Origin: Escherichia phage vB_EcoA_ASO2B
Sequence record: MZ726794.1
DNA length: 39,917 bases
Strand: one strand, 5' to 3'
Numbering within the stretch: position 1 is the stretch's first letter; every line of letters begins with the position of its first letter. This document shows positions 462-39,917 of the stretch, one piece after another. The position numbers were made by a program, and so were the translations under genes. A model generated the notes under the pieces. That model was given only the letters and a program-made list of their open reading frames with translations. It did not search any database and was not told the origin of the DNA.

Positions 462-491
462 TTGACAAGAAGTATATAATTAAAGTATTAT
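462..491 (+). promoter_or_regulatory. Candidate host sigma70 early promoter (A2/A3-like)
   Basis: TTGACA (462-467), 18-bp spacer, TATTAT (486-491); followed by gcagtaagac, resembling the T7 A2 region. Inference. Confidence 0.35.
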
Positions 492-36882: not shown

Positions 36883-37332
36883 ATGCTCGAATTTTTAAAG
36901 AGAGCGGCTCCGTGGTTACTTGCAGCAGTGATGTTTGCGGGTGGCTACCACACCGCTAATAATAAGTGGGAGGCTAAGGTCAATGAAGAATACACCTCGA
37001 ATCTTAAGGCATCGGAAGATACAAGGCTTGCTGTCCAAGCTGAAGTCAACAAAGTGTCCAAACGGTTTCAGGACGAAATGTCCTCGCTGGAAGGCAGCAC
37101 TGATAGGATTATTGCTGACCTTCAGTCTGACAATAAGCGGCTGCGCATCCGAGTCAAGCCAACGAGTGGAACCACGCAAAGTGACGGTCGATGCGTCATT
37201 GATGGTTACGCCGAACTTGACGAACGAGATGCTAAACGTCTTATCGCCATCGGAGTGAAAGGAGACAAGTGGATTAAGGCCCTTCAGGACACTGTGAGAG
37301 CCTTGCAGCAAGATAAGGAGGTGACGCATTGA
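36883..37332 (+). CDS. i-spanin (Rz-like, T7 gene 18.5 homolog)
   Basis: N-terminal membrane anchor [15 protein letters not shown], then a charged, probably coiled-coil periplasmic domain; SD gggaggg. Confidence 0.8.
36983..37258 (+). CDS. o-spanin (Rz1-like, gene 18.7), embedded in +1 frame of the i-spanin gene; start uncertain
   Basis: Lipoprotein signal with lipobox [13 protein letters not shown] and Pro-rich mature part; chosen ATG 36983 gives 91 aa; track ORF begins at 36935. Confidence 0.5.
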   Translation: MKNTPRILRHRKIQGLLSKLKSTKCPNGFRTKCPRWKAALIGLLLTFSLTISGCASESSQRVEPRKVTVDASLMVTPNLTNEMLNVLSPSE

Positions 37333-39092
37333 GTAAAGATTTAGTGGCGCGTCAGGCGCTAATGACTGCCCGTATGAAGGCAGACTTCGTGTTCTTCCTG
37401 TTCGTCCTGTGGAAAGCTCTGTCACTACCAGTCCCGACTCGCTGTCAGATTGACATGGCGAAGAAACTATCGGCTGGGGACAACAGGCGTTTCATCCTAC
37501 AGGCGTTCCGTGGTATCGGGAAGTCATTCATTACGTGCGCATTCGTGGTATGGAAACTGTGGAACAACCCAGACTTGAAGTTCATGATTGTGTCGGCCTC
37601 AAAGGAACGAGCAGATGCGAACTCCATCTTCATCAAGCGAATCATCGACCTCATGCCTCAGCTTCAGGAACTTAAACCTAAGCAGGGGCAGCGAGATGCG
37701 GTTATCAGCTTCGACGTTGGACCAGCCAAGCCAGATCACTCACCTTCGGTTAAGTCCGTTGGTATCACTGGTCAGTTGACTGGTAGTCGTGCTGACATCC
37801 TGATTGCCGATGACGTGGAGGTTCCTAACAACTCAGCGACTCAGGCTGCACGAGACCGTCTGTCAGAGCTTGTGAAAGAGTTCGACGCTATCCTGAAGCC
37901 GGGAGGTACAATCATCTATCTGGGTACTCCTCAGAACGAGATGACCTTGTATCGTGAGCTGGAAGGCCGAGGATACACCACTACCATCTGGCCCGCTCGC
38001 TACCCACGCGATAAGAAGGACTGGCAGTCTTACGGCGACCGTCTGGCTCCTATGCTTCAGGCAGAGCTTGAAGAGGACCCTGAGTCCTTCTACTGGCGTC
38101 CTACCGATGAAGTACGATTCGATGATACGGACCTGAAGGAACGTGAGCTGTCCTATGGTAAAGCTGGCTTCGCTCTACAGTTCATGCTTAACCCTAACCT
38201 GAGTGATGCCGAGAAGTACCCTCTGAAGCTCCGTGACCTTATCGTAGCAGACTTGGACCCAGCGTCTAGCCCAATGGTCTACCAATGGCTTCCTAACCCT
38301 CAGAACAAGCGTGAGGACGTTCCTAACGTTGGACTCATGGGTGACTCATACCACACGTATCAGACTGTAGGTTCTGCCTTCAGTTCGTACACCCAGAAGA
38401 TTCTGGTCATTGACCCTAGTGGTCGTGGTAAGGATGAAACGGGTTATGCGGTACTGTACCAGCTAAACGGCTACATCTTCGCTATGGAAGTTGGCGGTAT
38501 GCGAGGTGGCTATGAAGACTCTACGCTGGAATCCTTGGCTAAGATTGGTCGTAAGTGGAAGGTAAACGAATACGTCATTGAGGGTAACTTCGGTGATGGC
38601 ATGTACCTTGAGCTATTCAAGCCCGTAGCTTCCCGTATTCATCCTGCTGCTGTAACTGAAGTGAAGAGTAAGGGTCAGAAGGAACTCCGCATCTGTGACG
38701 TTCTGGAGCCTATCATGGGGTCTCACCGACTTATCGTCAACGCTGCTGCTATCGTCCAAGATTACCAGTCTGCCTCTGATAAGGATGGTGTTCGTAACCC
38801 TATCTACTCTCTCTTCTACCAGATGACACGTATCTCTCGTGAACGTGGAGCATTGGCACACGATGACCGACTTGATGCGCTGGCTATCGGTGTACAGTTC
38901 TTCGTTGAGTCTATGGCGAAGGATGCCAACAAAGGCGAACGTGAAGTCACTGAGGAGTGGCTGGAGGAACAGATGGAGAACCCACGGAAAGGCTTCGAGT
39001 CCATCCACACGGAGTTCTGGGACAATGGTGTCCGGGTAACTCACGATACGGACGACGAGATGGGACTAGGGTCCTACGTTACGTTCCACTAG
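37329..39092 (+). CDS. Terminase large subunit (T7 gene 19 homolog), 587 aa
   Basis: Size and order as T7 gp19 (586 aa); ATPase-like N-terminal half ([15 protein letters not shown]) and nuclease-like C-terminal half. Confidence 0.95.
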
Positions 39093-39186
39093 CTGAATGA
39101 ATAACTATAGGCGAAAACTGAATTAATAAGCAGTTAGTAACCTATAGTTACTACCAGTCTAACCTACTGTTTTACAAGGAGTTTGG

Positions 39187-39209
39187 ACTTAACTATCACT
39201 ATAGGGAAG
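39187..39209 (+). promoter_or_regulatory. Phage RNAP promoter near right end (phiOR-like)
   Basis: gacttaactatcactatagggaaga. Confidence 0.8.
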
Positions 39210-39391
39210 ACCCCCCCGGTTACTTATAGTATTACTGTAGTGAATATACATATGCAGACTTTATGCAAGACCTTAGGAGGCAGACTACGAGTTCTTACCT
39301 AAGGCTTGCACCGATGGAAGGAGGGTGATATTAATCATAATCCCTCCAATACAGATAGTCACCGACCATAGATACAGGAGGTATGTAGCAT

Positions 39392-39550
39392 ATGGCAAAG
39401 ACCAAAGCTGTACTTAAAGCTCTGGCGACCAATCGAGCTACATACAGGTTTCTTGCTGCTGTTCTACTTGCTGCTGGCGTTACTGCTGGAAGTCAGTGGG
39501 TCGGGTGGGTCGAGACTCTCGTATGTTCTCTGGTGTCTCAGTGTAATTAA
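39392..39550 (+). CDS. Small hydrophobic protein (gene 19.5 position), 52 aa
   Basis: ATG 39392 with SD aggagg; MAKTKAVLKALATNRATYRFLAAVLLAAGVTAGSQWVGWVETLVCSLVSQCN. Confidence 0.5.
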   Translation: MAKTKAVLKALATNRATYRFLAAVLLAAGVTAGSQWVGWVETLVCSLVSQCN

Positions 39551-39679
39551 CGCAATCATGGTAACGATTCATGAGTGGAAGACCTAAGGTCAGTACGTGG
39601 ATAAAGACCCACTCTACTGACCTTAGCTACTGTAGTCAAGGACTTTAGGTAACACCTTAATAGAAGCTCACTTAGGGTC

Positions 39680-39755
39680 ATCCTACTTATTGGTCTATCC
39701 TAGTGTCGCCTGACCTACGGTCCTTGACCTACAGTGGCTGTGGCCTACAGTAGTG
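39680..39755. repeat. Right short-repeat array (SRR-like), CCTAC(A/G)G units
   Basis: cctacgg 39714-39720, cctacag 39728-39734 and 39744-39750, plus degenerate copies upstream; mirrors the left array at 104-217. Confidence 0.6.
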
Positions 39756-39789
39756 ACGATGAGTTTTGGACCAAAAGTTTGAGACCACA

Positions 39790-39917
39790 TCTCACAGTTC
39801 AAGAACCTCAAGTCTCCCCATAGGCCCTCTTTAAGTCCAGACCAAAGGCCCTACCCGTTACTGCTCCTTGCAGTCACAGCCAGTCTGTCATAAGGTTGGA
39901 CCGATGGTCAGGACTTC
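39790..39917. repeat. Proximal part of predicted direct terminal repeat; predicted physical genome terminus at ~39790
   Basis: tctcacagttcaagaacctcaagtctccccatagg parallels the T7 left end TCTCACAGTGTACGGACCTAAAGTTCCCCCATAGGGGG; continues into window start. Inference by analogy. Confidence 0.4.

Follow-up and report, generated by a model that had tools for sequence, protein, structure and literature searches.

Genes and promoters

The window analyzed here is the whole 39,917-nucleotide sequence of Escherichia phage vB_EcoA_ASO2B (MZ726794.1), in which gene order was nearly canonical from gene 0.3 (1120–1650) through gene 19.5. Gene 19, for the predicted terminase large subunit (DNA maturation protein), occupied positions 37329–39092 of the plus strand as an ORF of 587 amino acids, and the homologous region is annotated accordingly in Mt1B1_P3, Peacock, and K1F. 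The C-terminal 200 amino acids of its product had 50% identity to T7 gp19 (tblastn), consistent with a T7-type terminase. Gene 19 was followed on the same strand by a predicted phiOR-type promoter for the phage RNA polymerase, ACTTAACTATCACTATAGGGAAG (39187–39209), which matched the window’s own promoter consensus (ACTAAACTATCACTATAGGGA, 8 sites) and would start transcription at about 39204. The phiOR promoters of T7 (39229) and T3 (37432–37454) likewise lie between gene 19 and gene 19.5. The gene 19.5 homologue itself (39392–39550, plus strand, 52 amino acids) was recognized as an ORF whose product matched T7 gp19.5 by BLASTP (33% identity over 33 amino acids, E = 2e-5) and phrog_2193 (E = 6e-25). 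An earlier note, made from the sequence of this window, had placed gene 19.5 and the right-end promoter just upstream of the true genome end, and both were present there.

At the other end of the window, a predicted strong sigma-70-type early promoter (TTGACA-18-TATTAT, 462–491, plus strand) matched the consensus at 11/12 bases and occupied the position of T7 promoter A1, which lies at 498 in T7 and has its hexamers at 443–472 in T3. A phiOL-type promoter candidate right of the repeat, at 312–334, was left unassigned, with just 13/23 consensus positions matching in a manual alignment.

Short-repeat arrays and conserved box

The heptamer CCTACAG occurred 29 times in the whole window against 6.0 copies expected, a count reached in 0/100 shuffles. 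Exact copies near the window ends numbered six at 112–209 and two at 39728–39750. With one mismatch allowed, plus-strand density was 31 per kb in positions 75–300 and 13 per kb in 39560–39789 vs 2.3 per kb elsewhere, an excess of 13-fold on the right and 5.6-fold on the left. The right array consisted of seven CCTACAG-type copies on the plus strand (106–209) with a perfect 16-bp tandem, ACCTACAGTCTCACTA, as its core (111–171). This tandem was present in 3.8 copies in the window, 4.8 in the Mt1B1_P3 record MT496969.1, and 7.8 in the Mt1B1_P3 record OZ035815; T7-like Yersinia phages likewise vary in how many short repeats follow the terminal repeat on its right (PMC5923468). The left array (39714–39750, plus strand) comprised three copies, CCTACGG, CCTACAG, and CCTACAG, at 14–16-nt spacing, and is the counterpart of the repeats found left of the terminal repeat in T7 and T3. 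A search of 39680–39712 for CCTACAG with at most one mismatch returned nothing. Of the arrays that the earlier note had described on both sides, the right one was thus borne out, while the left one was shorter and weaker than the claimed span of 39680–39755. Dispersed ACCTACAGTC copies were only partly conserved in K1F and were set aside as candidate functional sites.

Between the left array and the repeat, a conserved box, ACCAAAAGTTTGAGACCACA (39770–39789, plus strand), directly abutted the repeat’s left boundary and was nearly invariant in kayfunaviruses. Similar 20-mers precede the terminal repeat in T7 (CATAAAAATCTGAGTGACTA), T3, Berlin, fPS-54-ocr, phiPsa17, and Adeo, and the box may have a role in end recognition.

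Relatives with determined ends

More than 200 phage records matched both window ends, nearly all of them from the genus Kayfunavirus. The best match was Escherichia phage Mt1B1_P3 (MT496969.1, 40,313 bp), which belongs to the same species level. The whole window was collinear with positions 75–40185 of that record, in reverse orientation, at 98.8–99.0% identity. The two copies of the direct terminal repeat (DTR) in MT496969.1 are identical over 202 bp; in the window, the initial 40 bases of this repeat mapped to position 39790 and the final 40 ended at position 74. The bases of the record left uncovered by the window, 74 + 128, sum to exactly one 202-nt repeat. The Mt1B1_P3 termini come from a PhageTerm analysis of read starts (PMC10470868), and the read-start check that the earlier note had suggested is therefore available in published form for a 99%-identical relative, with DTR ends at the window’s 39790 and 74. 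Mt1B1_P3 and the window have in common the DTR start TCTCACAG, the DTR end ..GAGTCTCT, and a private 23–24-nt insertion within the repeat; they differ in that Mt1B1_P3 was deposited reversed and with both repeat copies, and by ~1% point divergence.

Other members of the genus gave the same boundaries. In the record of coliphage K1F (DQ111067) the two DTR copies match exactly over 178 nt, starting at the same sequence and ending one base earlier than window position 74; its repeat is quoted as 179 bp in the literature (PMC4925675). Peacock has an annotated 179-bp DTR, predicted with PhageTerm, whose start sequence is the same as that of the window repeat. For Citrobacter phages SH3, SH4, and SH5, DTRs of 183, 190, and 190 bp were determined by run-off sequencing of virion DNA (PMC4925675). 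The SH3 and SH4 genomes begin at TCTCACAG, with a second copy 184 and 191 nt before their respective ends, and K1F, Peacock, SH3, and SH4 have the common start TCTCACAGTTCAAG. In IMG/VR, seven Kayfunavirus contigs, SH3 and SH4 among them, start at this left-end sequence (within their first 3 bases) and end 179–196 nt past its second copy. An exact copy was present at both ends in six IMG/VR contigs, where the right boundary was ..GAGTCyCT/ATCTGTAT (the slash marking the boundary) in 4/6 and shifted by +1 in one and by +4 in SH3.

K1F, Peacock, SH3, SH4, and SH5 have the hairpin arms in common with the window, and their repeat has the same left end and right boundary, with the same box before it and TATCTGTAT behind it. 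Their repeats are shorter (178–191 nt vs 202) and without the 23–24-nt insertion, and they differ in the hairpin loop and in the composition and length of the right array. Among 21 aligned junctions the window alone carried this insertion, which was otherwise seen only in the two Mt1B1_P3 records, and the repeat is longer here than in K1F because of it.

Terminal repeat and genome form

These alignments place the terminal repeat across the end and start of the window, on the plus strand. Repeat nucleotides 1–128 correspond to positions 39790–39917, beginning at the Mt1B1_P3 DTR start, and K1F, Peacock, SH3, SH4, and three more IMG/VR contigs begin alike. Repeat nucleotides 129–202 correspond to positions 1–74, ending at the Mt1B1_P3 DTR end; the other records put the right end at 73–78. 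The predicted left end carries TCTCACAG at 39790–39797, where the earlier note had recognized a tctcacag left-end signature (~39790), and the longer conserved left-end motif TCTCAYAGT is present at 39790 as TCTCACAGT, identical in T7 and TCTCATAGT in T3. Since the boundary differs by 1–4 nt among records, the right end is good to a few bases. Between the initial and the final 400 nt of the window no exact word longer than 10 nt was shared, and the window therefore holds one copy of the repeat, not two.

We conclude with high confidence that MZ726794.1 represents the complete genome of a Kayfunavirus (K1F-like, T7 group, Studiervirinae) as a circularized or collapsed assembly, its single copy of the terminal repeat being split across the window end and start. 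The virion DNA of vB_EcoA_ASO2B is very probably linear with a DTR of roughly 202 bp. In all likelihood its left end lies at 39790 and its right end at 74, after the second repeat copy, for a predicted length of ~40,119 bp. Homology to relatives with experimentally determined ends established what the repeat is and where it starts and stops, and the ends of vB_EcoA_ASO2B itself are predicted through that homology. The earlier note had read the window as a permuted representation with the concatemer junction and terminal repeat spanning its end and start, and the mapping of the Mt1B1_P3 DTR from 39790 to 74 bears this out. The permutation is small: with the sequence opened between repeat nucleotides 128 and 129, the origin is shifted by 128 nt only.

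Two other accounts of the genome ends were considered. The first and last bases of the window could be true physical ends, a natural origin with no repeat spanning them, as the presentation of the window as a linear sequence would suggest; beyond that presentation, nothing but the nearly canonical gene order favors it. Such ends are very improbable. Joined end to start, the window runs without a break through the interior of the Mt1B1_P3, K1F, and Peacock repeats; there is no terminal duplication between the window ends; and all relatives with determined ends begin at TCTCACAG, 128 nt before the window end. Headful (pac) packaging would also yield a collapsed circular assembly, from circularly permuted DNA with no defined terminus, and the match to TCTCACAG would then be merely a conserved non-coding relic. 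The terminase is of the T7 type, however, and the earlier note had itself named headful packaging without defined ends as the finding that would speak against its reading. Instead, experiments or read analyses have established defined DTRs for several phages of the genus (Mt1B1_P3, SH3, SH4, SH5, Peacock, and K1F), one of them 99% identical to the window, and in the seven IMG/VR contigs the left-end sequence starts within the first 3 bases and its second copy lies 179–196 nt before the end. Headful packaging is thus the least probable of the accounts, with odds that we regard as minimal, and a terminally repeated linear genome is the reading that we retain.

The DTR was already known from the annotation of the 99%-identical record and from descriptions of the genus and subfamily, and there is nothing biologically new in it. 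The value lies in annotation. Any comparison in which the window ends pass for termini would put the repeat in the wrong place; as the earlier note had advised in general terms, the genome should be re-origined, with its start at window position 39790, and the virion DNA should be regarded as ~202 bp longer than the window.

Inverted repeat left of the terminal repeat

Positions 39584–39626 hold a perfect inverted repeat, CTAAGGTCAGTA / TACTGACCTTAG, whose 12-nt arms (39584–39595 and 39615–39626) are 100% complementary and enclose a 19-nt loop. This agrees with the hairpin with a 12-bp stem reported in the earlier note at ~39583–39630; a 13th pair cannot form, since C faces C just outside the arms. 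As DNA the hairpin had a predicted folding energy of -13.2 kcal/mol (z = -3.9), and 0/200 shuffles folded as well; as RNA the value was -26.9 kcal/mol (z = -4.1). The center of the hairpin lay 185 nt left of the repeat start at 39790. Across 22 kayfunavirus junctions the right arm was invariant and the left arm varied solely at its last base, with identities to the window of 1.0 and 0.955, respectively, while the loop occurred in several unrelated variants (0.715). Conserved arms with a variable loop fit selection on pairing or on the arm sequences. Next to the hairpin, the block at 39627–39660 was 0.976 identical to the window across kayfunaviruses, and a second, longer-range inverted repeat spanned 39635–39728, its 16-nt arms (39635–39650 and 39713–39728) being 88% complementary and made of oppositely oriented copies of the short-repeat motif.

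Inverted repeats at a similar distance were found in other genera. T7 has an imperfect one of 19 nt, 79% complementary, centered 190 nt left of the terminal repeat; T3 has an imperfect one centered at 184 nt; and the Helsettvirus fPS-54-ocr has a perfect 10-bp inverted repeat at 178 nt. All three differ in sequence from the kayfunavirus one. The feature is not universal: the best inverted repeat in Berlin was at 244 nt, that of phiPsa17 was weak (171 nt), and none was found at the junction of the Przondovirus Adeo. In 1990, Chung, Nardone and Hinkle reportedly described T7 concatemers that end in a hairpin ~190 bp left of the junction, and suggested that repeat duplication proceeds through this structure. 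The T7 inverted repeat at 190 nt is presumably that hairpin end, and the site at 39584–39626 is a candidate counterpart of the T7 hairpin-forming site.

A tentative extension of this analogy is that the palindrome, composed of two short-repeat motifs in opposite orientation, is the kayfunavirus version of the T7 hairpin intermediate, and that the ~185-nt distance kept in Kayfunavirus, T7, T3, and Helsettvirus reflects a measured-distance requirement in repeat duplication. We consider this possible and hold it at about the same modest odds as a competing account, in which 39584–39626 acts not as a DNA hairpin intermediate but as RNA (a 3' stabilizing stem-loop or processing site of the phiOR/gene 19.5 transcript) or as a pair of protein-binding sites. 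The stem lies 34 nt past the gene 19.5 stop on the transcribed strand and its RNA fold is strong, both of which suit a function in the transcript, and the arms carry the short-repeat motif CCTAAGGT in opposite orientation, as expected of paired binding sites. Because the arms are essentially invariant, there is no covariation by which a DNA hairpin, an RNA stem-loop, and paired protein-binding sites could be told apart. Against a role as RNA or binding sites, both window ends had no Rfam match at E ≤ 1 and the stem has no T-run behind it; an intrinsic terminator at the hairpin was rejected on the same ground, the terminator scan of 39000–39917 having been empty. The spacing of 178–190 nt, kept in four genera with unrelated sequences, is better suited to a DNA-level role tied to the repeat than to one in the mRNA, as is the hairpin end that T7 concatemers are said to have ~190 bp left of the junction. 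The choice concerns mechanism alone and leaves the terminal-repeat assignment unaffected. For specialists, the sole comparative point is this inverted repeat at 178–190 nt in four genera with unrelated sequences. If the hairpin intermediate were correct, repeat duplication would be more accessible to genetic tests with the clean, perfect kayfunavirus palindrome than with the imperfect inverted repeat of T7.

ATCTGTA after the repeat

Directly after the repeat, at 75–81 on the plus strand, the window has ATCTGTA, a candidate pause-like site and the positional counterpart of the T7/T3 class II signal ATCTGTT, which it matches at 6/7 bases. The class II pause/termination signal of the T7 concatemer junction (CJ) is described (preprint 10.64898/2026.02.12.705533) as a strictly conserved ATCTGTT with A, C, or T in front of it; the window signal reads T-ATCTGTA at the exactly homologous position. 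Conservation was high: of the 21 aligned junctions, all 19 from kayfunaviruses had an unchanged TATCTGTAT, which the 2 T3-like ones did not have. ATCTGTA had a single plus-strand occurrence in the window. The canonical ATCTGTT had three plus-strand, and hence transcribed, copies inside window genes, compared with one plus-strand and four minus-strand copies in T7. The shorter ATCTGT occurs in T7 3 times on the plus strand vs 15 on the minus strand, so that strand avoidance was clear in T7 and only partial in the window. Pausing at 75–81 is a reasonable inference by analogy with T7, and the three plus-strand ATCTGTT copies in the genome weaken the reading of ATCTGTA as a pause site for this polymerase. 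In a T7 knockout map, just two essential loci were recorded close to the genome ends, positions 142 and 162, where the left repeat finishes (PMC11482910).

Proposed mechanism

The standard T7 scheme is the account of genome maturation with the best support, and the steps proposed here are transferred from T7 and T3. Linear genomes would recombine or anneal through the direct repeat into head-to-tail concatemers whose neighboring genomes share a single repeat. A pause at the ATCTGT site by polymerase transcribing from the phiOR-type promoter may help to initiate maturation, and the gp18/gp19 terminase, together with proheads, would cut at the two repeat boundaries. DNA synthesis, perhaps with a hairpin intermediate at the inverted repeat as its primer, would restore the missing repeat copy.

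Comparison with the T7 and T3 junction

Every element of the junction was present and conserved. The 1.1 kb around the repeat is highly likely to be a T7-type concatemer junction; in order, it comprises the phiOR-type promoter, gene 19.5, the inverted repeat, the short array on the left, the box, the repeat, ATCTGTA, and the long array on the right. The functions of the hairpin, box, arrays, and pause-like site are assigned by analogy and should be regarded as putative.

Alignment to the T7 and T3 termini, which the earlier note had put forward as a check, supported its reading: all three repeats begin with TCTCAYAGT and each is directly followed by ATCTGT (boundary ..CT/ATCTGT). The right boundary is ..GTGTCCCT/ATCTGTTA in T7 and T3 and ..GAGTCTCT/ATCTGTAT in the window. 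The interior of the repeat was largely unalignable with that of T7, with 129 identities in 240 alignment columns. The T7 and T3 junctions, with terminal repeats of 160 and 231 bp, agree with that of the window in the order of elements, the flanking heptamer arrays, and a similar distance from phiOR to the repeat. They differ from it in the heptamer, which is CCTAAAG there and CCTACAG here; in the inverted repeat, which is unrelated in sequence and 79% complementary there vs perfect (12/12) here; and in the signal after the repeat, which is ATCTGTT in T7 and T3 and ATCTGTA in vB_EcoA_ASO2B.

Terminal repeat and its left flank

The terminal repeat is 202 nt long here and 178-191 nt in relatives, because it carries a 23-24-nt insertion (GTTACTGCTCCTTGCAGTCACAG) at about 39857-39880 of the window. 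Among the 21 junctions aligned, the window alone had this insertion; it is common to the window and the records of Mt1B1_P3. Directly left of the repeat, adjoining its boundary, lies a conserved 20-nt box (39770-39789) that was recognisable in six other Studiervirinae genera, with counterparts such as CATAAAAATCTGAGTGACTA in T7 and CAGAAAAATCTGAGTGAGTA in Berlin. Compared with those genera, the kayfunavirus version of the box was the most diverged.

Short repeats

The right array of short CCTACAG-type repeats includes a perfect 16-bp tandem repeat (ACCTACAGTCTCACTA, 111-171) of 3.8 copies; the two records of Mt1B1_P3, a phage 99% identical to the window, have 4.8 (MT496969.1) and 7.8 (OZ035815.1). 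Since the copy number is unequal between the window and these two records, the tandem either behaves like a variable-number tandem repeat or is subject to assembly collapse. Comparable variation of short-repeat number has been reported for the Yersinia fPS phages (PMC5923468). Every short-repeat motif in the right array had one orientation, unlike the left side, where a second inverted repeat (arms 39635-39650 and 39713-39728; 16 nt, 88% complementary, 62 nt apart) consists of motifs in opposing orientation, so that both orientations are present left of the terminal repeat.

The 10-mer repeat unit ACCTACAGTC also recurred without mismatch outside the junction, four times on the plus strand (6155, 8097, 18901, and 23406) and once on the minus strand (38372). 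By a rough estimate, about 0.1 copies of a random 10-mer would be expected in a search space of 2 x 40 kb, compared with these five, and allowing one mismatch gave 25 matches in the window vs 3.5 expected. Three of the five dispersed copies were exact in K1F and the other two had single substitutions.

Gene 0.3 and a related record

The ORF of the Ocr-like gene 0.3 (1120-1650) contained a perfect 21-bp tandem repeat of 2.4 copies (1430-1479) that encodes a duplicated acidic EEEDEKA stretch. PV615262.1, 'Acinetobacter phage vB_Aba_01KA', shared 95-98% identity with the window, an E. coli kayfunavirus. It matched the window almost exactly as vB_Eco_1RS did, the two being 39611 and 39612 nt long, and its Acinetobacter host label looks doubtful.

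Right boundary of the terminal repeat

A candidate sigma-70-like promoter with an extended -10 element (TTGAGT-17-TGtTATAGT, 65-93) spans both the right boundary of the terminal repeat and the ATCTGTA site that directly follows. A 2026 preprint (10.64898/2026.02.12.705533) reports that E. coli RNA polymerase recognises the concatemer-junction terminator of T7 as a promoter of the extended-TGn type. Over the whole length of T7, the transcribed strand strongly avoids ATCTGT, with 3 occurrences vs 15 on the other strand and about 12 expected. The same strand asymmetry was weaker in the window (6 vs 10) than in T7.
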